Below are positions 48,513-62,747 of a stretch of 64,000 bases of DNA, piece after piece. The notes under the pieces are model-generated. The model did not search any database. It was not told the origin of the DNA and saw only the letters and a program-made list of their open reading frames with translations. Made by a program: the position numbers and the translations under genes. Source of the DNA: a virus. Where the stretch lies: IMG/VR virus record IMGVR_UViG_3300045391_006990, positions 32,001 to 96,000 of that record. The stretch is one strand, 5' to 3'. Position 1 is the stretch's first letter; each line of letters begins with the position of its first letter.

Positions 48513-51500
48513 TCAAAGGTTTTCGCCTGGGCTCGCCACATCGGGAGCCATGGGAATGTCAGGTTGCATGGGTGAATCAGCGTCGTCGCTCGAGAACTCG
48601 AAGTCCTTGTCGTCAGGCTGCGCGCCGATGAGCTTCTGCCCGGCGGTGTCGCGCCTGTTGAACTTCCTGATGGGCAGGTCTTCGCGTGCAAGGTCACGCA
48701 TGCCGCTCATCAGCGTGCCCGAGTAACTCACGCCGTCTACGTTGAGATTGAAGAAAGTGCTGAACTGACCTTCGAGCAAAAGGTCGATGGCCCTGTCAGC
48801 TCCCTTTTGCCTGAAAGTCGACAGCATTACGTCCACAGGCTCGACCGCGGGCGCTTCATACAGGTCGAACACGGCGCCGAGCTCGGTGAGCGAAGCGGCC
48901 ATATCCTCGAGCAGGTTCGTTGCATCGTTGATCATGGAAGGCGTGGGGTTGGCGTTGGTCACGATGGGGTTGAGCGCGCGCGCCAGGTTTCTGAAGAAGA
49001 GCTCTTGCTGCGGCGACTGACCGAGCCAGGTGGTTGAACCGTCCTTGAGCTCGGTGTAGTTGGCCACCTGCGCGATGCGGATGCGCCCGAAGGGATTGGG
49101 CACGCCGAAGTCGAAGGTGAGGCTGAACGTCGAGGCGACAGCTGCGCTCAGCTCGAGCACCTGCAACGTGCTGTCGATGGAGACGACCTCTTGCTCGACG
49201 TCCACCACGTTGTAGCTGCCCACATAGAACTGCACGAGGTCGCCCACCGTCACGCCCGCTGGGAACGTGTCGAAGCGGATGAACTTCGTGAAGCCCTTGA
49301 TGGGCACACCCACGTCGATAGGGTCCAGGAAGTAATCGGCGCCATGGCTCGTGCCTGCGTTGTCGACCGTGATCGCAGAAACCAGCGTGGTGTCACGCGA
49401 GACGAAGCTCACGTCTTCGGAGCCGAACTCCACGTTGAACCCAATGCTCTTATTCCCGTCTTTGAAGACGGGTAGCGAGCTCTCGATGACGAGCTCGAAC
49501 GAGGCCGTGGTCTTCACCAACTGGTCCTCACCAATGTAGTAGTGTCCTTGGTTGGGCCCGTCGCTGATGATCAGCACGTCGCCAAAGCCGAAAGTCACGT
49601 CTGGTCCCACCTCGATGGAGATGGCGCCGTCGGTGACAGGCACGGGGAATGTAACGCCCAACACACCAGACGCGATGGTGTTGATGCTGCCTTCTACTCC
49701 GATGTCAGTTGGAGTAAGGCTTGAGCGAATCACCACGCGATCTCCCAGCTGCACAGAATCAGGAACGGCGACCGCTAGTGCGATGTTGGTTCCGCCCGTA
49801 CCTAGAAGGCCGTCGCAGACCAGCTTACTCAGCACCACGCGCGTCGGGTCCGTAGGCTCGGAGCGCGCGCTACCGACGTACTCGAAGGGGTGAAACACCA
49901 CCTTGGCGCTCAAGGCAGCAGTCGAGCCCGTGATGTTGTCGACCACGGCCTGGGCTGATACTGGGCGGCTCCGCACCTCGATGCCAGGGAAGAAGCCCAG
50001 GATGGCGTGGGTCAGGTCCTGCACCCCGTCGGTGCGTGGCAGCCGAATAGCCCTCCGCTGGACCACGCTGCCGAGTTCGTCCGTGTCCACGAGCTGCAGG
50101 GCGCGCGCGGCAGGCCCCGTTTCGATGGAGTCGTCGCTCGCAGGCACAACAGGCGCCACGCCGGCGGTATCCACGTACTGGCCCAGAGGGTCGACCGCCG
50201 TGATGCCCCACGTCGTACCAGCGTTGGTCCCTGCCACCACATCGAGGTCGTCGCCCACTACAACGCCCAGCGCGTTCAGATCGCCGGCCAAGATGGTGAA
50301 GCGTGCGTTGTTGCCACCCAGGCTCGTCGTGGTGACGGGCCCGCTGTAGCGCAAGGGCACGAAGCGCTTCTGCATACGTAGCGATGAAGCACCCAGGCCT
50401 GCGTTCACCTCGGTCACGATCTGCTGGGCAGAACGTGTACCGATGGTGAGGGGAATGTCGAAAGTTGCGCCGCCCGTGTCGAGCTGCCCGAACACGATGC
50501 GCATGGCGTTGCTGTCTGCCGTGATGGCGAAGGGCTCCTGCAGCGTGCCCAAGAGCTCAGCCACGTACGACAGGGGCAACGGGAAGTCGAAGGGCGTCCC
50601 GCCGTCCAAGGTGAAGCGGATGAGCTGATTGGCAGCCAGGATGGGGTAGGGGCCCGAGCTCGAGCTCTCACGCACCGCTGGCACGGCCAGGTGCTGGGTG
50701 TCGGCGTAGGCCGTGGCCAAGCCCGAGGTGGTGATGAACTCGCTCGGAGCCGTGGCCGCCCCGTACTTCGTGACCAGCGGGCGCTGGGTGAGCAGGTCCA
50801 GCGTGACCGCGCGCAGGTTGTCGAGGCGGCTGTTCTCGTCCAGCGCCGCCAGGTCGTTGTAGTGGCTGTCGAGCACGTCGCGCGCGCGGCTGATGACACC
50901 CTGGGCAGCGATGCGGGGCAGGTTCAAGCTCGCAAAGTCGTCGATGGCGCCCGCCAGCAGCTTCACCCGCCTGATGAGCTCGTTCTGCTGGTCCACCAGC
51001 TGGCGCACGAGCCCTGGGATCTTCCCCCGGGCCCCACTCGGCGTGTCCACGATGGTAGCCGAGCCGTCGGCACCCGTCTTCCTGATATTCGAGCCCGTGG
51101 CACCGAGGAAGCCGTCGAGGTTCTGGACGTAGCGTCGGTACGCTGGGACCTTGCTGATGTCGCTGAAGCCTTGGTCACGGGATGAAACAGCGGCTTCGAG
51201 CTCCTCCAGGGCGCTGCGTGCGTTGGCAAGCAGGCTGATGTCAGTGATAGGGGTCGTGAGCCTATCGGTAGCCTCCACTGCGTCGATGAGGCTTGCGATG
51301 GTTTGAGCCTGTGAATCAAGGGCATCCTGCAGCCTCTTCACCCCGAGCTTGAGCACATAGAAGGGGGCGTTGAAGTACAGGATGAAGCACCCTGCGGCGG
51401 CCTCTTGGATGTCGCTGAAGGATACGTCAATCTTCCTTTCCCCGAGAATACCCGTTGGATGTCGAACACTTGACCGTACAATCTTCTCGACGGCGTCCTG

Positions 51501-51527
51501 CACTTCTTGGTCGGTGTAGTTGCTCAT
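48513..51527 (-). CDS. Putative virion structural protein, 1004 aa
   Basis: Helical termini around a beta-rich core. Shares GVxVGD..I..GxNxG repeats with the baseplate protein. Confidence 0.6.
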   Translation of the reverse strand: MSNYTDQEVQDAVEKIVRSSVRHPTGILGERKIDVSFSDIQEAAAGCFILYFNAPFYVLKLGVKRLQDALDSQAQTIASLIDAVEATDRLTTPITDISLLANARSALEELEAAVSSRDQGFSDISKVPAYRRYVQNLDGFLGATGSNIRKTGADGSATIVDTPSGARGKIPGLVRQLVDQQNELIRRVKLLAGAIDDFASLNLPRIAAQGVISRARDVLDSHYNDLAALDENSRLDNLRAVTLDLLTQRPLVTKYGAATAPSEFITTSGLATAYADTQHLAVPAVRESSSSGPYPILAANQLIRFTLDGGTPFDFPLPLSYVAELLGTLQEPFAITADSNAMRIVFGQLDTGGATFDIPLTIGTRSAQQIVTEVNAGLGASSLRMQKRFVPLRYSGPVTTTSLGGNNARFTILAGDLNALGVVVGDDLDVVAGTNAGTTWGITAVDPLGQYVDTAGVAPVVPASDDSIETGPAARALQLVDTDELGSVVQRRAIRLPRTDGVQDLTHAILGFFPGIEVRSRPVSAQAVVDNITGSTAALSAKVVFHPFEYVGSARSEPTDPTRVVLSKLVCDGLLGTGGTNIALAVAVPDSVQLGDRVVIRSSLTPTDIGVEGSINTIASGVLGVTFPVPVTDGAISIEVGPDVTFGFGDVLIISDGPNQGHYYIGEDQLVKTTASFELVIESSLPVFKDGNKSIGFNVEFGSEDVSFVSRDTTLVSAITVDNAGTSHGADYFLDPIDVGVPIKGFTKFIRFDTFPAGVTVGDLVQFYVGSYNVVDVEQEVVSIDSTLQVLELSAAVASTFSLTFDFGVPNPFGRIRIAQVANYTELKDGSTTWLGQSPQQELFFRNLARALNPIVTNANPTPSMINDATNLLEDMAASLTELGAVFDLYEAPAVEPVDVMLSTFRQKGADRAIDLLLEGQFSTFFNLNVDGVSYSGTLMSGMRDLAREDLPIRKFNRRDTAGQKLIGAQPDDKDFEFSSDDADSPMQPDIPMAPDVASPGENL

Positions 51528-53190: not shown

Positions 53191-53427
53191 TCAACCTAGT
53201 TTTGGCAGCAGCGCGATGCACGCAGGGCACGAGACGTTCTCGTCGTCGAAGGTGTAGAGCGGGGTCTTGTCGGAGAGGGGCGTGCCCTTCGACCAGTCAG
53301 CTCGGTACACGCCTTCAGGCAAGCCCTCTGGCTGCGCGTAGACGTAGTACTCCTTGTTCTGACAGAGGATGGTTACGTAGGGCTGCGAGGAGCTGTGGCA
53401 GGCGTGAACGACTTGCTCGGTGTTCAT
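53191..53427 (-). CDS. Zn-finger protein of the same family, lacking the motif
   Basis: VH...ILC...VSCPAC, then ends. Confidence 0.55.
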   Translation of the reverse strand: MNTEQVVHACHSSSQPYVTILCQNKEYYVYAQPEGLPEGVYRADWSKGTPLSDKTPLYTFDDENVSCPACIALLPKLG

Positions 53428-53633
53428 GTGGTTGCTGCTTTCTGTAGTGCATGTTCCATGATTTCAGCGCGCTCGTCTCGGTACCGAGCAGTGCGCATGC
53501 AGCTCTTGCACGTCACCCAGTCGGCAAGCGAGGTCCACTGCACACGGCCTTCAGGGTCTTTGGTATTGCATACCTGCATGCGCTTACCGCAAGCTGTGGT
53601 GCGGTTCATGCCAAGGAAGAGGTGGACAGACAT
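53424..53633 (-). CDS. Zn-finger + AxxMExAL motif protein
   Basis: H..TACG..VTCKSC followed by DERAEIMEHAL. Confidence 0.7.
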   Translation of the reverse strand: MSVHLFLGMNRTTACGKRMQVCNTKDPEGRVQWTSLADWVTCKSCMRTARYRDERAEIMEHALQKAATT

Positions 53634-53908
53634 AGCTTCACGATCTTTTCGGTCAGCTCGTCGGTAAAGGCCCTGAAGCTGGCGACGGTACTGGGCGTGG
53701 TGAGCGACTCTTCCATCCGCTGGGCTTGGCACTCATCTGAGATCAGGCAGGCTTCGCAGTCCACGATGTCCAAGCTGCTAGAGAGGCGCGCGTCGTCGGG
53801 CAATTCACGTACCAGCTTGCCGCAGCCTGTACGAAACGGCATGTGCTGCTTGGGCGTGGGGAGCCAGTAATGAATCACGATGAGCTGGTCGTTTTCGTCG
53901 ACGTTCAT
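53606..53908 (-). CDS. Zn-finger + AxxMExAL motif protein
   Basis: HY..TGCG..VDCEAC followed by ECQAQRMEESL. Confidence 0.7.
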   Translation of the reverse strand: MNVDENDQLIVIHYWLPTPKQHMPFRTGCGKLVRELPDDARLSSSLDIVDCEACLISDECQAQRMEESLTTPSTVASFRAFTDELTEKIVKLCLSTSSLA

Positions 53909-54369
53909 GTGGTGCCTATCAGTAGCTGCCGTTGTGCGGATGGATTCCACTTCATGTGCTGCCCGGGCGGGAGGGTGAACTGCAGGATGATGAAGCCGTC
54001 AGCGCGCTTGACCATGTACTTGCGGTTCGCAAAGGACTCGTTGTACACGGTGAACTCTTCGATGCGCTCGCCAGCCGCCCACACGCGGTACACGCTTCCC
54101 GTCTCATCGACCAGCGTGGCAGCAGGGGCTTGGAGCGCTTCCTCCATCGCCTGTGCCTTACACTCGTCGGACCTGAGGCAGGCGGGGCAGTCCACTTCCT
54201 TGAGCTTGCTGGTGAGCGAAGCGGGCTGCCGTAAGTCGTAGAAGCCAAGGCCGCAGGCTGTGTGCACGGGCCCACGCCTTTCGACGTAGTAGTGGTGCGC
54301 GGTAGGGAGCACACGAGTAGTGAATGAGCGGGCTGCCTCCGCAATCTTTTCTTTTAGCTCAGCGCTCAT
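53905..54369 (-). CDS. Zn-finger + AxxMExAL motif protein with a C-terminal domain
   Basis: HY..TACG..VDCPAC followed by ECKAQAMEEAL. Confidence 0.7.
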   Translation of the reverse strand: MSAELKEKIAEAARSFTTRVLPTAHHYYVERRGPVHTACGLGFYDLRQPASLTSKLKEVDCPACLRSDECKAQAMEEALQAPAATLVDETGSVYRVWAAGERIEEFTVYNESFANRKYMVKRADGFIILQFTLPPGQHMKWNPSAQRQLLIGTT

Positions 54370-54595
54370 ACATGTCCGTACCGAACATCGACACGACGCC
54401 CTCGGTTGCTTGCCGGATGTTCGATTTGATGAGGGCACGCTCCATGCCCGTGGCCAGGTACTCGTCCGAGCACAGGCAGCCAGGGCACGTTACTTCCTTG
54501 AGGCTGTTGGTGCCGCATACGCCGGGTTCAGTGCCCAGGGGTTGGCCGCAGGCTGGGATGTAGTTGGCACCGCGGGTGACATAGCAGACGGGCAT
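54359..54595 (-). CDS. Zn-finger + AxxMExAL motif protein
   Basis: CY..PACG..VTCPGC followed by EYLATGMERAL; GGAGG SD. Confidence 0.7.
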   Translation of the reverse strand: MPVCYVTRGANYIPACGQPLGTEPGVCGTNSLKEVTCPGCLCSDEYLATGMERALIKSNIRQATEGVVSMFGTDMYER

Positions 54596-54612
54596 GCGTA
54601 CCTCCTGCAGCA

Positions 54613-54930
54613 TTACGTAATCTCCAGCTTCTTCAGGTACTCGGCAGAGACCATGAGCTTGCTGAATTCCTTCTCGAGAAGTTCATTTGGATACAGTACA
54701 TTCATGAAATCACCTGCCTCCACACCACGGTTGACGAAGTCAGGCTCGCGCAGCGAATCCTCCATGGATTGAGCCAAGGCATCGAGGTACTGGGCGGACT
54801 CGAGGCAGCTCTCGCAGTTGATGCGCTCGACCCAGCGCGTGGCGTACATATCGTGGGTGATGCGCACGCCACATCCCGTACGCTTGCTGTCACCGTTCTT
54901 GGCGAAGTGGGAGGTGCCCTCGAACTTCAT
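54613..54930 (-). CDS. Zn-finger + AxxMExAL motif protein
   Basis: HF..TGCG..INCESC followed by DALAQSMEDSL. Confidence 0.7.
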   Translation of the reverse strand: MKFEGTSHFAKNGDSKRTGCGVRITHDMYATRWVERINCESCLESAQYLDALAQSMEDSLREPDFVNRGVEAGDFMNVLYPNELLEKEFSKLMVSAEYLKKLEIT

Positions 54931-55283
54931 GGACCACCACCTTCCGCTGTGATCGCCAGCTTGCGTACGACACCATCCGAGCTCATCACGCAGATTTCGT
55001 CTGTAGTCGTGTCCATCCACAGAAAGCAACCGCTGACAGGTGCAGTGGTTGGGGCGCCCGGCAGCCAGGTATTCGAGCTCGCGGGCAGCGGGATGGTAGG
55101 CGCGCTCTTGCCGGAGATGGTGAACACATCCGTGCGCAGCGCATCTTCCATGGACTGCGCGACGCCTTCGAGGCACGTGACACAATCCACCTCGTAGGGT
55201 GCGCTGCTGCAGAAGTCAGCCTTCACCTGACTCAAGCCGCAGAAGGTGCGCGCTCTACCTGGAGGGACGTAGCAAGTAATCAT
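54927..55283 (-). CDS. Zn-finger + AxxMExAL motif protein with a tail-fibre-tip-like C-terminus
   Basis: CY..TFCG..VDCVTC followed by EGVAQSMEDAL. Confidence 0.7.
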   Translation of the reverse strand: MITCYVPPGRARTFCGLSQVKADFCSSAPYEVDCVTCLEGVAQSMEDALRTDVFTISGKSAPTIPLPASSNTWLPGAPTTAPVSGCFLWMDTTTDEICVMSSDGVVRKLAITAEGGGP

Positions 55284-55918: not shown

Positions 55919-56263
55919 CTACACCCCGAGCTTGAGCCTGGCTTCTTTGATGGACTCGAGCGAGATCCACGCAGGCTTACGGTACCGTGCAGTGGCAATG
56001 TCATTGCAGAACTTATGCCAAGCCTCGGTCAAGATCTTGTGCTCCGTACGTTGCTCCAAGCTGAGCCACACGGTGCCGCGGCCTTCGGCTTGCAGCGTCT
56101 CGAGGTCGAAGCGCCCTCTTGGTGCGATGAAGCGCGAGTTCTCGTAGTTGTACTCCACCCACTTGCGCCCAATCTTGGTGATCACGTACTCGGTAGGCTT
56201 GCCACGGTCGAAGTCGTGCTCGACGAAGACATGCTGCCCTACCTTCAGGTTGTGCTTGTTCAT
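55919..56263 (-). CDS. Hypothetical beta-barrel-like phage protein
   Basis: LKVGQ...ITKIGRKW; ATGA overlap. Confidence 0.6.
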   Translation of the reverse strand: MNKHNLKVGQHVFVEHDFDRGKPTEYVITKIGRKWVEYNYENSRFIAPRGRFDLETLQAEGRGTVWLSLEQRTEHKILTEAWHKFCNDIATARYRKPAWISLESIKEARLKLGV

Positions 56264-56637
56264 GATGCCCACTCGAAGGCGATGCCTTCACGCTCACACA
56301 TTTCAGAGAACATTCGGCGCACGGCGATACATTGCCGGTCACCAGGTTTGAGTGCCTTGCGGCACACGTCGGGGCGCTTTTCGTAGATGGAGCAACTCAC
56401 TTGGCTACCGATGGAGCCACGCAGCGAGACGCACCTGCAGTCCTCACAGCCTTTGAGCGGGCCCGTCTTGTTGACCGTTGGCCGTGTACGTATCTCGCTG
56501 CGAATGACGTGCAGCTTCACGTAACGTTTGCCCAGAAGCTCTTCATCTTTGGGCGTGAGGTTGACGTAGGTGTCCTCCCAGGTAAGGGAGGTACAACAGA
56601 TGCCGCACTTGCGGCAGTCAGGCTTGCGCATGATCAC
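56260..56637 (-). CDS. YkgJ-family CxxCxxCC cysteine-cluster protein
   Basis: DCRKCGICC...CVSL.G.IG...CSIYEKRPDVCR...C. Confidence 0.8.
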   Translation of the reverse strand: MIMRKPDCRKCGICCTSLTWEDTYVNLTPKDEELLGKRYVKLHVIRSEIRTRPTVNKTGPLKGCEDCRCVSLRGSIGSQVSCSIYEKRPDVCRKALKPGDRQCIAVRRMFSEMCEREGIAFEWAS

Positions 56638-59173: not shown

Positions 59174-59454
59174 CTCTTCATACCCTCCTTGACGCGTACT
59201 GATCTTTCCTCGAGCGTGGCGATCAGCCTGTCGGCAGTAGCTGCGGACACGCTGTCGAGCATAAGTCGACCTCCCGAAGTGGAAGCAGCCGTAGCTGTGC
59301 CAGTGCGTAGGCTCACGTCATCCCCAATAGAACGTTGCGATGGTGGAGGCTCGGTGACGGTCAGCGCATCCTCCATAGCCTGCGCTATAGCAGCCTTCTT
59401 GTGGTACCAAGGTTGGTACTTGCGCACGTGGAGCTTCTTCTTGCGCTTACTCAA
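59101..59454 (-). CDS. Basic N-terminus + AxxMExAL motif protein
   Basis: AAIAQAMEDAL. Confidence 0.6.
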   Translation of the reverse strand: MSKRKKKLHVRKYQPWYHKKAAIAQAMEDALTVTEPPPSQRSIGDDVSLRTGTATAASTSGGRLMLDSVSAATADRLIATLEERSVRVKEGMKRWHKAVRQSDSRQAGRSRRRTTKG

Positions 59455-59863
59455 TTGAGATCGAAACCTTTTTCAGCTCGATTATTGGGGTAATGCCAGC
59501 GGAGATGTGTAGGTGCTGCTTGAGCTCCGCTTCAAGCAGTACGCTACCGTCTAGGATTAGTTGAACCTTCGACAAGATCGCTGACCCCCCTATACACGCA
59601 GGGAAGCAGATGGGTCTTACGGTACTGAGAAGTCCGTGGGCGACAGCCCATTGATTCGTGTCACGCGCGAGGGAAACCCGCGCATAACCAGCGTAGGTCA
59701 CCTCATTCCCGTCAATATCCAGAAGGCTTGCTGTCATCCCTGTAGTAGGAGTCAGCGCAGCTTCCATGCGTGCGGCAGCTAAATCACACTCACGCTTTTG
59801 CTTAAGTAACGACTCAACCAACTTCCACTGGTGCTTGGCCCACCGAACCGAATTCCTCTTCAT
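59447..59863 (-). CDS. AxxMExAL motif fused to a phage tail-protein-like domain
   Basis: DLAAARMEAAL followed by NEVTYAGYARVSLAR...W...FPACIGGS...ISAGITP. Confidence 0.65.
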   Translation of the reverse strand: MKRNSVRWAKHQWKLVESLLKQKRECDLAAARMEAALTPTTGMTASLLDIDGNEVTYAGYARVSLARDTNQWAVAHGLLSTVRPICFPACIGGSAILSKVQLILDGSVLLEAELKQHLHISAGITPIIELKKVSISIE

Positions 59864-60453
59864 GGTCTGCGCAGCCGTCCTAGCCCGTAAGCCGGGCCTG
59901 TGCCATTGATCTTGCCTCCAATCAATTTAAGGGGAGGTCCGCCGTAGACTGCCGCGAATGATGCGATCTTTGCGGCGGCGCGCGCTACATCCGCGCTTAT
60001 GCCATCGGCAACCACCTTCTCGAACACCTGCTCGATGTCGTCCGGCAGCTCATCGCCGTAGCTGCTGAGCACCAAGGCCGTGTTTGCTTTGGATTCGCCA
60101 AACGCTTGCTCGAGCACGCGCCGCTCGAGCTCAGCGTAGTCCGTACGCGCCAATGGGTCGTCAACGATGACGAGCGTACCTGGACCTCCAAGCCGTTGTG
60201 GCGTCGGCAGGCCACGCGAAGCGTACCTGTGCTCCAAGGCCATATCTTGAAGCTGGGCGTAGAAGTCGTCGAGGCGTGGGATGTACTGCAAGTTCGGCTG
60301 TGATGAACCTCTGCGCCCAGTGATTGGGCCCAGAGTTTCGAGGTCGAACGCCACCGGATCGAAGCTGAGCGCCGCCTCCATTGCGTGTGCCTGCGCATCT
60401 TCGTACGCCTTGTTGCGCCGTTGATTGCGGGTAAGTCGCTTCTGCCTACGCAT
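59860..60453 (-). CDS. AxxMExAL motif fused to a patchwork of DNA polymerase A motif fragments
   Basis: DAQAHAMEAAL, VAFDLET, TGRRGSSQPNLQYIPR, DYAELERRVL and AKIASFAAVYG. Confidence 0.65.
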   Translation of the reverse strand: MRRQKRLTRNQRRNKAYEDAQAHAMEAALSFDPVAFDLETLGPITGRRGSSQPNLQYIPRLDDFYAQLQDMALEHRYASRGLPTPQRLGGPGTLVIVDDPLARTDYAELERRVLEQAFGESKANTALVLSSYGDELPDDIEQVFEKVVADGISADVARAAAKIASFAAVYGGPPLKLIGGKINGTGPAYGLGRLRRP

Positions 60454-60652
60454 TCTTCCTCCTAGCCTTCACCCGCTTGGCGTCTTCGAAGCAGGCACGA
60501 GCCTCGTCCTTGGATTTACCGGTGGCTCGCATCCAAATCTCCATCAGCGTGGACTCTCCGCTGAGTGCTTCTTCCATGTCCCGCGCTTGCTCATCAACCG
60601 AGGCGGCTCTTTGGTCCCTTGTGCTTGGGTCGGACGACAGGGGTTGTGTCAT
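60446..60652 (-). CDS. AxxMExAL motif protein
   Basis: DEQARDMEEAL; GAGG SD. Confidence 0.65.
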   Translation of the reverse strand: MTQPLSSDPSTRDQRAASVDEQARDMEEALSGESTLMEIWMRATGKSKDEARACFEDAKRVKARRKNA

Positions 60653-60955: not shown

Positions 60956-61906
60956 TCATTTTCTTAGCTCCAGGGATTTGACGACTTCAGGGCTCAGGTA
61001 GGGGTTGCGGGCGCAAGCATCTTCGATGAGCCGCTCCATGGCCACCTCGAACTTGCCCTTGTCGTCGCGCCCCTCGGCGCCAACAACGCAGCGGTCGCGC
61101 GGATGAAGCTGCAGCTTGGTCTCAATACGCAGGAGCCTGCCTTCCGGAAAGCTCATGGAGCTCGAGCCCGTCTGATACAGGCCTTGGTAGATGTACAGGT
61201 TACCGAGGTCTTTGTTGACGCGCTCGGCATTGGCCTTCGCTGCGGCTACATCCAAGGCGCGGGCGACGCTCGTCCTGCGACGGTCGTGCTCCCAGCGGCG
61301 CAGCACCTCAGCCGGCTTCAGCTCTTGGATCTCGATGACATACGAGGCGTAGTGCACGTCGTATTCGACCGTCTCCCAGCCAGTCTTACTCACCTCAGGC
61401 TCTGGGTGCGCCACACAGAAGGGTTGGCCAGGGGCGATGCCGTTTTGTAAGGCCCACTGCCGCCATGGCTCATGCCACTCGTGGTCGTACTCGAAGCAGT
61501 CCCCGTCGCCGTAGCTGATGCCCAGCGCCTCCCGCAAATCCAAGTCGCTCAGCCACCAAGGGAACCACTTGGGCTCCTGCGACGCGGGCCTCAGCTGATT
61601 GCCCATGGCGTCCCATTCACCCTCGTCGGTATCCCACGCAGGGCCTTGCCCGATCTTCACCGGATGCAGGTCGTAGAAGTCACCCCAATACAGGCGGTAC
61701 CATTCTCGTACCAATTTGATGCCATAGAGGTTTACGGCATCGCTGTCGTAGCGCACGGGTGGGATGAGTTTGCGCAGCTTCTTGAGCGTGCGACGCGTCT
61801 TGGTTGTAGGCACCAACGCTGCTGGAGGCACGGGCTCGCTAGGCATGCCATCCCACCACAACTCTGCTTCACTCAAGCTTTGGCTTCTCCTTTCTTGCTG
61901 GCACAC
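60956..61906 (-). CDS. Hypothetical Trp-rich protein
   Basis: Long ORF in the operon. Start uncertain. Confidence 0.6.
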   Translation of the reverse strand: MCQQERRSQSLSEAELWWDGMPSEPVPPAALVPTTKTRRTLKKLRKLIPPVRYDSDAVNLYGIKLVREWYRLYWGDFYDLHPVKIGQGPAWDTDEGEWDAMGNQLRPASQEPKWFPWWLSDLDLREALGISYGDGDCFEYDHEWHEPWRQWALQNGIAPGQPFCVAHPEPEVSKTGWETVEYDVHYASYVIEIQELKPAEVLRRWEHDRRRTSVARALDVAAAKANAERVNKDLGNLYIYQGLYQTGSSSMSFPEGRLLRIETKLQLHPRDRCVVGAEGRDDKGKFEVAMERLIEDACARNPYLSPEVVKSLELRK

Positions 61907-62747
61907 GGAAGGTCACGCCCTTGATGAACGTGGGGTCGTTGGCATCGTTGGCGAACTCGATGTCCTCGGTCGAGTCTTTGCCCACGCGCGTTGTGGTCTT
62001 GGTGAAGATGCCACAGCGCCCGCACTCCCAACTCTTCTTGTGAATGAACGGGATGTCGTCGCTGAACAGGGCTTCGAGCTCAGCCTCAGTCATTGGCTGC
62101 GTGAAGTCCTTGATCACCTGCGTCTGCTCTTCACTGTCCTTGCTTTCGCTCCAGCCGTTACAGCGAGGGCAGTACATGCCTTCAGCCTTGAACGTACCAG
62201 CGATCTGCGCCTCGAACTGACTGAGGTCGGTCATGTCGTAGCGCCGTACGATTTCAGCCTTGGGCATCCTGCGTATTTGCTCGGCAGTGGTAACGAAGAT
62301 GAGCTTGGCGCGCAGGGAGGCGTAACGCACCTCGTGCTCGTTGACCAAGAAGTCGACGGTCTCACCAGCCCTTTCCGAGGCCCAGGCGCAGGCGGCATCG
62401 ATAGCGCGCTCGAGGTGCTCGTTGGCCACGGCGGTGGCGTCGAAGTCTTCGAGCTCGTCATCAGTAGGCGCATGCCCTACCGCTTGCTCGACGAGCCAAC
62501 GTGGGGCGTCGGCGAAGCCCATGAACCTAGGGCTGCTCAGAAAGCGCACTGCCCTCACGTACGACTTGCGCAAGAGCTTCGTGTACGAGTCGTCGTCCTC
62601 ACCACCCTTGGGCCTGGTGCCGATGCAGAGCGGAAAGCGCGAGCAGCCAAAGAAGCTGCCTTTGGCGCCGTGCCGCTCCATCATGGGCACGCCGCATTCA
62701 GGGCAGCGCACGTGCGGAAGCAGCACGCGCTGCTTGAACTTACCCAT
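61869..62747 (-). CDS. Protein with a topoisomerase-type C4 zinc ribbon
   Basis: CPECGVPMMERHGAKGSFFGCSRFPLC; GGAGGAG SD. Confidence 0.75.
   Translation of the reverse strand: MGKFKQRVLLPHVRCPECGVPMMERHGAKGSFFGCSRFPLCIGTRPKGGEDDDSYTKLLRKSYVRAVRFLSSPRFMGFADAPRWLVEQAVGHAPTDDELEDFDATAVANEHLERAIDAACAWASERAGETVDFLVNEHEVRYASLRAKLIFVTTAEQIRRMPKAEIVRRYDMTDLSQFEAQIAGTFKAEGMYCPRCNGWSESKDSEEQTQVIKDFTQPMTEAELEALFSDDIPFIHKKSWECGRCGIFTKTTTRVGKDSTEDIEFANDANDPTFIKGVTFRVPARKEKPKLE

Follow-up and report, generated by a model that had tools for sequence, protein, structure and literature searches.

What is a phage open reading frame (ORF) of 197 amino acids (aa) that carries motifs of a family A DNA polymerase behind an N-terminal tag, and what might such a protein do? 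The gene in question, P0001, occupies positions 59860-60453 (stop codon included) on the minus strand of a 64,000-nucleotide stretch of viral DNA, hereafter the window, which corresponds to bases 32001-96000 of a 111,271-bp IMG/VR virus record with a CheckV completeness estimate of 58%. The original prediction had read this ORF as a collage of isolated polymerase motifs mixed with terminase-like and PurA-like snippets, and the strings on which it relied are all present in P0001 in the order given: AHAMEAAL at residues 22-29, VAFDLET at 34-40, ITGRRGSSQPNLQYIPR (the TGR block) at 44-60, GTLVIVDDPL at 92-101, DYAELERRVL at 105-114, RAAAKIASFAAVYGG at 158-172 and NGTGPAY at 183-189. As to what the protein is, we are highly confident of the answer: read from profile alignments, the core of P0001 is a condensed, collinear copy of one contiguous palm/fingers stretch of PolA, with the strand that precedes the TGR motif, the TGR motif itself, motif A, motif B and possibly a GRRR element kept in their PolA order.

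The similarity is faint in P0001 alone and much clearer when its relatives are added. On its own, the sequence matched the Pfam family DNA_pol_A (PF00476) with an E value of 0.0055 and 16.1 bits (13.2 bits in a genome-wide scan), which does not reach the gathering cutoff of 34.3 bits, although the match was contiguous, running from residues 41 to 174 of P0001 against profile positions 114-223 of 381. When a profile built from eight members of the P0001 family (described below) was compared with the PDB, family A polymerases made up nearly all of the best 60 matches (top E 6.6e-5). The same profile was then aligned by hhalign with 60 PolA sequences, comprising the 685-aa PolA encoded by this phage itself (the resident PolA; G000:C1:3496-5553, plus strand, outside the window), its relatives and distant IMG/VR PolAs. 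This gave a probability of 97% and an E value of 1.2e-10 over 157 columns, a significant match that bears out the proposal that the ORF is PolA-derived. Residues 10-196 of P0001 were paired with residues 357-577 of the resident PolA, with the PolA order kept throughout. Taken block by block, the TGR/PNLQ segment matched PolA with an E value of 3.2e-10, motif A and its preceding strand with 3e-4 at the collinear position, and the motif B region with 0.086, again at the correct collinear position; residues 1-30, the tag, gave no match (E 0.56), leaving a PolA origin of the tag unsupported. The aligned PolA stretch spans about 220 aa, with about 125 aa between TGR and motif B in the resident enzyme. 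Since the whole core thus corresponds to a single contiguous and collinear piece of PolA, the motifs were not collected from more than 500 aa of polymerase, as had been supposed, with the possible exception of the heptad resembling the exonuclease motif Exo I. The parts of the gene, all on the minus strand, are as follows.

59860..60453 (minus): P0001, the tagged PolA-derived mini-protein (ORF reading and conserved family)
60458..60463 (minus): Shine-Dalgarno sequence AGGAGG, 4 nt upstream of the P0001 ATG, read from the sequence
60364..60453 (minus): N-terminal tag, residues 1-30, an Arg/Lys-rich start followed by an amphipathic helix; not PolA-like
60367..60390 (minus): tag core AHAMEAAL (A-x-x-M-E-x-A-L), common to 16 other minus-strand genes of the array in which P0001 lies
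60334..60354 (minus): VAFDLET, with D37 and E39 invariant in all nine family members; either the strand before TGR or an ExoI-like DxE heptad
60274..60321 (minus): TGR/PNLQxIP motif (PolA motif 2), residues 45-60, from the hhalign alignment
60178..60273 (minus): segment specific to the family, residues 61-92, with about 22 aa left unmatched by the collinear PolA alignment
60109..60177 (minus): strand preceding motif A, including the supposed terminase string, and motif A (DYAELERR), with D105, A107 and E110 invariant
59983..60108 (minus): shortened fingers linker, residues 116-157, from the hhalign alignment and helices predicted by AF2
59938..59982 (minus): motif B/O-helix, with R158, K162, F166 and Y170 at PolA spacing and G171 next
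59863..59937 (minus): variable C-terminal tail, including the supposed PurA string, delimited by alignment

How much of the collage survives this alignment? That P0001 is a true multi-source assembly, in which microhomology recombination joined snippets of PolA, terminase and PurA, now seems extremely unlikely, and its terminase and PurA components are largely refuted. P0001 matched no terminase family, whether in Pfam (E<=10) or among PHROGs (E<=1), and GTLVIVDDPL, once taken for a terminase Walker B motif, aligns to the β-strand that precedes motif A; the terminase reading was ruled out on both counts. The PurA reading fared no better, as no PurA match was found in Pfam at E<=10 and the supposed motif NGTGPAY lies in the unconserved tail, where its GxGPxY string is kept only in P0001 and, in altered form, in P0008. 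The core being collinear with one PolA stretch also speaks against a collage, of which the part that stands, marginally, is a pair of PolA resemblances out of collinear order. When the FDxET region (residues 30-44, V-x-F-D-x-E-T) was compared alone, its best match was to the Exo I columns of PolA (P 0.009; 1 of 150 column shuffles reached the score), whereas the full alignment puts it at the strand preceding TGR. Likewise, the best match of the 60-97 segment, whose consensus in other family members is F...YPGL..YF and which is degenerate in P0001, was the YF..YPGV helix that comes after motif B in PolA (P 0.013; none of 150 and 1 of 40 shuffles). Both the heptad and the insert beat shuffled columns at about the 1% level, which makes some rearrangement of the fragment suggestive, not established.

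Whatever its history, P0001 is not expected to polymerise DNA, as had been claimed from the start. It has no HDE of motif C, the alignment ending at PolA residue 577, 56 residues before the resident QVHDE (633), and it has no counterpart to the PolA residues before 357 or after 577, so that the thumb and the full palm of the polymerase domain of about 400 aa are missing. Nor did we find the DEDD 3'-5' exonuclease, since there was no Pfam match to PF01612 and no Exo II or Exo III motif, leaving the ExoI-like heptad alone. It is the lack of motif C, of the thumb and of the exonuclease domain that would make the protein unable to polymerise. Complementation of a split polymerase was considered and ruled out: the only PF00476 matches in the genome are P0001 and the resident PolA, which is intact with all its motifs, and the same scan revealed no separate motif-C piece elsewhere. 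Compared with the family A polymerases (PF00476; Klenow, Bst, Taq), to which it is homologous, P0001 has the TGR/PNLQxIP motif, the catalytic Asp and steric-gate Glu of motif A, motif B (in three members of its family) and possibly GRRR; for the last of these, hhalign sets GPAY...LGRLRR of the tail opposite YP.V...LGRRR of PolA with low confidence. It differs in its length (197 aa), the extra segment of about 22 aa, the shorter linkers, the unrelated N-terminal tag and a far faster evolution, and it falls outside PF00476 on score, on motif C and on architecture.

A further question was whether the fragment had been taken from the polymerase gene of the same phage. P0001 does not duplicate the resident polA: identity between the two proteins is restricted to the motifs, and at the DNA level the longest word common to both genes has 13 nt, in positions that are not homologous. 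Gene conversion between them was ruled out by this lack of positionally homologous shared DNA. Moreover, the clade of the resident PolA has a derived NLQN(V/I)T(G/T/S) after TGR, where NLQNIP(x)R is canonical elsewhere, and the P0001 family retains the canonical (I/L)PR, as seen in more distant PolAs. The motif-only identity, the absence of shared DNA and the canonical (I/L)PR together imply that P0001 was not recently copied from the resident gene, and the PolA fragment is on this sequence evidence either old or foreign. Against GenBank phages, megablast of the region found no match and tblastn of P0001 returned only non-significant matches to Aeromonas podophage polymerases. There is no cultured relative, the most similar PolA among GenBank phages having 29% identity. 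As a separate observation, several close relatives of the resident PolA (P0013, P0042, P0058 and P0059) are 980-1068 aa long and carry intein or homing-endonuclease Pfam domains.

Is P0001 then a real gene? Its ATG overlaps the stop codon of the upstream 68-aa tagged gene (ATGCGTAG), its own stop codon shares bases with the start codon of the tagged gene that follows (ATGA), and the AGGAGG stands at a short distance upstream. Given these signals P0001 is embedded in a tightly coupled minus-strand operon, and the overlaps and the Shine-Dalgarno sequence indicate that it is translated operonically. A promoter and terminator scan of 57-64 kb gave hits at chance level only. P0001 also has relatives. 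Six small homologs of 167-235 aa were recovered by an exhaustive phmmer search of 1.84 billion cluster representatives; every one aligns from residue 1, and neither long or fused forms nor any PolA came up at E<0.001. The seventh came from a profile search and one more is encoded by G001, a complete phage of 195.6 kb, which makes a rare family of nine members, eight of them among about 15 billion proteins plus the G001 copy. With P0001 alone, a near-length word-based search recovered only P0001 itself, and scans of IMG/VR loci with P0001, P0007 and P0002 were negative.

These proteins come from a narrow group of viruses. The family members were found on Logan/ENA contigs of up to 203 kb. The longest contigs of the mini-PolAs P0007 and P0005 (203,250 and 201,672 bp) have the same lengths as those of the PolA relatives P0011 (89% identical) and P0018 (83%), respectively, which suggests by inference that the same phages encode both proteins. 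The phages whose PolA is 45-64% identical lack the mini-PolA family; the homologs are confined to the closest phages of about 200 kb. P0001 is a genuine operonic gene in an uncultured clade of phages of about 195 kb. In two cases, G001 (L073:11665-12264, minus strand, equivalent to G001:C1:55664-56263) and P0005, the mini-PolA frame is about 70-100 codons longer and overlaps, in a different frame, the beginning of the tagged gene that follows, a possible instance of overprinting; the two extensions are alike (RLRRAKWF..IPLGDLAQEHLRAAG versus LRRARWYGTIPLSRLAQEQLRAAR).

Within the clade the family has diverged very fast. Between this phage and G001 the PolAs are 84% identical and untagged neighbours of P0001 46-82%, as against 28-45% for tagged genes, and the P0001/G001 pair is not detected by blastp at 1e-3. 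Identity across the family is 26-52%, with nine residues named here as invariant in all nine members: A16, A22 and E26 in the tag, D37, E39 and G46 around the FDxET and TGR blocks, and D105, A107 and E110 in motif A. Block conservation follows the same division, with the tag (0.68, among the most conserved), FDxET, TGR and motif A spanning 0.58-0.70, segment 61-92 and the linker 0.39-0.48, and motif B with the tail about 0.3. The position of the mini-PolA in its array is syntenic as well. A conserved family of nine runs counter to the simple decaying polA pseudogene that had been named as an alternative, and the conservation pattern is, at the level of sequence, incompatible with it.

Several results nevertheless weigh against reading P0001 as a selected PolA derivative and have to be set beside this conservation. 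The R-K-F-Y quartet of motif B is present only in P0001, P0008 and P0002 and is absent or degenerate in six of the nine members; the PNLQ part has decayed in about half of them, with the whole TGR block affected in G001 and P0004 and P0005 also affected, so that only FDxET, G46, DYAxxE and the tag are universal. Column conservation in the family is uncorrelated with that in PolA (Spearman 0.07, permutation p 0.19). Structure prediction was of little help: with the family alignment, AF2 gave predicted local distance difference test (pLDDT) scores of 57 for P0001 and 60 for P0007, and the PolA-like part has no confident fold in either, the tag helix (residues 9-29 in P0001, pLDDT 80-93) being the sole confident element. 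A Foldseek search of the P0007 model against the PDB had a best E value of 0.46, with no good match, and an ESM Atlas search returned nothing usable. Since the family does not track PolA conservation and TGR and motif B decay, selection would hold a small core and not the whole PolA cleft.

The best-defined part of the protein is therefore worth considering in its own setting, the array of tagged genes. The motif A-x-x-M-E-x-[ASV]-L occurs in 17 minus-strand genes between 51.5 and 63.1 kb of the window and in about 11 in the syntenic region of G001, and is essentially absent outside the array in both genomes; that P0001 sits behind an array tag, AHAMEAAL, was accordingly confirmed. The tag of P0001 has an isoelectric point (pI) of 11.4 versus 5.0 for the rest of the protein. 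Because synonymous sites vary, the tag is shared as a peptide motif; a DNA repeat was considered and ruled out. At 53191-55283 (minus strand) lies a tandem expansion of paralogs that combine a zinc ribbon (CxxC) with the tag and differ in their C-terminal tails; by phmmer, several match one another (best E 5.7e-13) and two G001 genes. Directly downstream of the array, at 48513-51527 (minus strand), lies the gene of a 1004-aa protein, a possible partner or hub of the array proteins, which matches nothing in Pfam or PHROGs; the G001 protein in the same position has 1035 aa and is 63% identical to it.

A second tagged gene carries a recognisable fragment of another phage protein. The gene next downstream of P0001 encodes 138 aa in which the tag is followed by a stretch aligning with residues 31-141 of a fibre protein of the Gp80 family that the phage itself encodes (34% identity, E 1e-18); the parent gene is at G000:C1:16117-16545 (minus strand; L084:4121-4546) and matches PF23140 with an E value of 5.5e-17. 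As G001 has no counterpart of this tagged fragment, it looks like a lineage-specific capture, and since it stands on the same tag, the combination of tag and fragment recurs in the array. When about 20 other genes of the array were scanned against PHROG and Pfam, no recognisable payload beyond Gp80 appeared. Interleaved with the tagged genes are untagged ones encoding a Topo-type zinc ribbon, a phage ProQ-C-like domain, a CxxCxxCC domain, a DnaJ-type zinc finger and an AAA_33 protein, so that the neighbourhood looks like an accessory, nucleic-acid-related region and not a head module. The neighbours located here are the following.

59447..59863 (minus): tagged 138-aa gene with the Gp80-type fragment
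55919-56272 (minus): untagged, phage ProQ C-terminal-like domain (E 1.2e-13)
56260-56637 (minus): untagged, CxxCxxCC domain
61869-62747 (minus): untagged, Topo-type C4 zinc ribbon (E 2e-9)

What such a protein might do can be proposed from these features. The tag helix would dock the array proteins to a common partner, and the PolA-derived part would serve as a binding or mimicry module, with the mini-PolA possibly competing for the contacts of the polymerase cleft, that is, for primer-terminus DNA, for deoxynucleoside triphosphate (dNTP)-Mg, or for a host factor that recognises PolA. This generic binder or mimic is the mechanism we favour, if only tentatively, from the sequence evidence. The chances of the combined reading, a non-catalytic condensed PolA derivative on a shared tag that acts as a binder or mimic, appear to us evenly balanced.

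Other explanations have to be weighed against it, and the most specific concerns immunity. The STAND NTPase Avs19 senses family A DNA polymerases through their core polymerase domain, with no requirement for the catalytic Asp (PMC13581612), and P0001 could be a decoy or inhibitor that binds or titrates a PolA-sensing receptor of this type without activating it, the array forming a library of baits. Besides the existence of such a receptor (PMC13581612), this idea draws on the tagged genes being the fastest-evolving of the region, as in an arms race, on the virion-protein fragment (Gp80-type) borne by the second tagged gene, and on the polymerase and MutS fragments that Bodo saltans virus carries on a multi-copy module, for which a decoy role was proposed (PMC5871332). 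We nonetheless consider it unlikely, as Avs receptors read whole core folds over extended interfaces, whereas P0001 holds less than half of the polymerase domain with no PolA-like fold predicted, its best-kept residues are metal-binding carboxylates that Avs19 does not need, and most other array payloads match nothing. Since Avs19 senses PolA, a decoy or inhibitor role is testable by co-expression. The wider version, in which the array as a whole is a bait library that joins a docking helix to condensed pieces of core proteins, whether from the phage itself or foreign (PolA; the Gp80-type fibre), is distinctly unlikely; so too is its corollary that the baits would intercept Avs19-like receptors or factors of competing phages, with the mini-PolA as the anti-PolA-sensor member. 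We assign a similarly small chance to functionless debris, a PolA fragment left by illegitimate recombination in a hyperplastic accessory region with its PolA-like part under no selection. The very fast divergence, with a P0001/G001 pair that blastp misses, the decay of TGR and motif B in several members, the lack of a confident AF2 fold and of an overall correlation with PolA conservation would all fit such debris, but they have to be reconciled with ORFs that stay intact (167-235 aa) in nine genomes at 26-52% identity, with the same invariant residues (D37, E39, G46, D105, A107, E110), the syntenic array position and intact translational coupling signals.

If instead the tag were a capsid-targeting sequence (CTS) like that of T4, P0001 would be packaged in the virion as an internal or ejected protein, and its PolA fragment would enter the host together with the DNA. 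The internal proteins IPI-III of T4 are likewise diverse, fast-evolving small proteins united by a short N-terminal sequence (PMC3012670), and the array shares this pattern of one short N-terminal sequence on otherwise unrelated proteins, as well as a very basic N-terminus (pI 11.4) and a Glu at a fixed place in the tag. The T4 CTS, however, has about 10 residues at the extreme N-terminus and is cut off by the prohead protease, whereas the array tag is a predicted helix with the i/i+3/i+4/i+7 spacing typical of a docking face and lies 12-130 residues from the start in paralogs (about 40-130 in the zinc-ribbon ones). D, K, I, R, A, G and S all occur two positions before the Glu, giving no consistent protease site, and the motif is found nowhere outside an array whose neighbours are nucleic-acid-related accessory genes and not head genes. 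Packaging is in our view very unlikely. Residual chemistry, in which D37/E39 and D105/E110 (joined in three members by the O-helix R-K-F-Y) would form a minimal metal or nucleotide site, is highly improbable, and the same holds for the idea that the mini-protein would bind or process dNTPs or a 3' end. The universal residues do coincide with the metal ligands of the PolA exonuclease and polymerase sites, and R158, K162, F166 and Y170 stand at exact PolA spacing in P0001, P0008 and P0002, but motif C is lacking, motif B is missing in six of the nine members and no compact fold is predicted. We know of no precedent for residual chemistry in such a fragment.

With a binder or mimic as the favoured role, what known systems resemble this one? 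MicroProteins and dominant-negative enzyme fragments are small proteins that retain, from a larger enzyme, a part that interacts or binds a ligand, and have lost catalysis. MicroProteins typically retain the dimerisation domain of an oligomeric regulator, whereas PolA is monomeric, and for this reason any competition by the mini-PolA would concern DNA, dNTP or a third-party binder. Of the systems described so far, Bodo saltans virus is the closest analogue; its multi-copy ankyrin ORFs carry 5' pieces of the DNA polymerase and MutS catalytic domains (PMC5871332). As in P0001, polymerase fragments there sit on a module of tandem, fast-evolving paralogs, although it is a eukaryotic giant virus and its fragment is N-terminal to a multi-repeat ankyrin module at the C-terminus, whereas in P0001 a helix tag of about 30 aa is N-terminal and the fragment comes after it. 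A literature search for truncated family A polymerase-like proteins of phages found nothing comparable.

Even if the PolA-like part were debris, this family would still document the capture and condensation of fragments of essential genes in hyperplastic regions of phage genomes. If it is functional, selection maintains a few residues from the active site of a DNA polymerase although the protein is unable to polymerise, which would point to phages building small binders or mimics from pieces of their core proteins.

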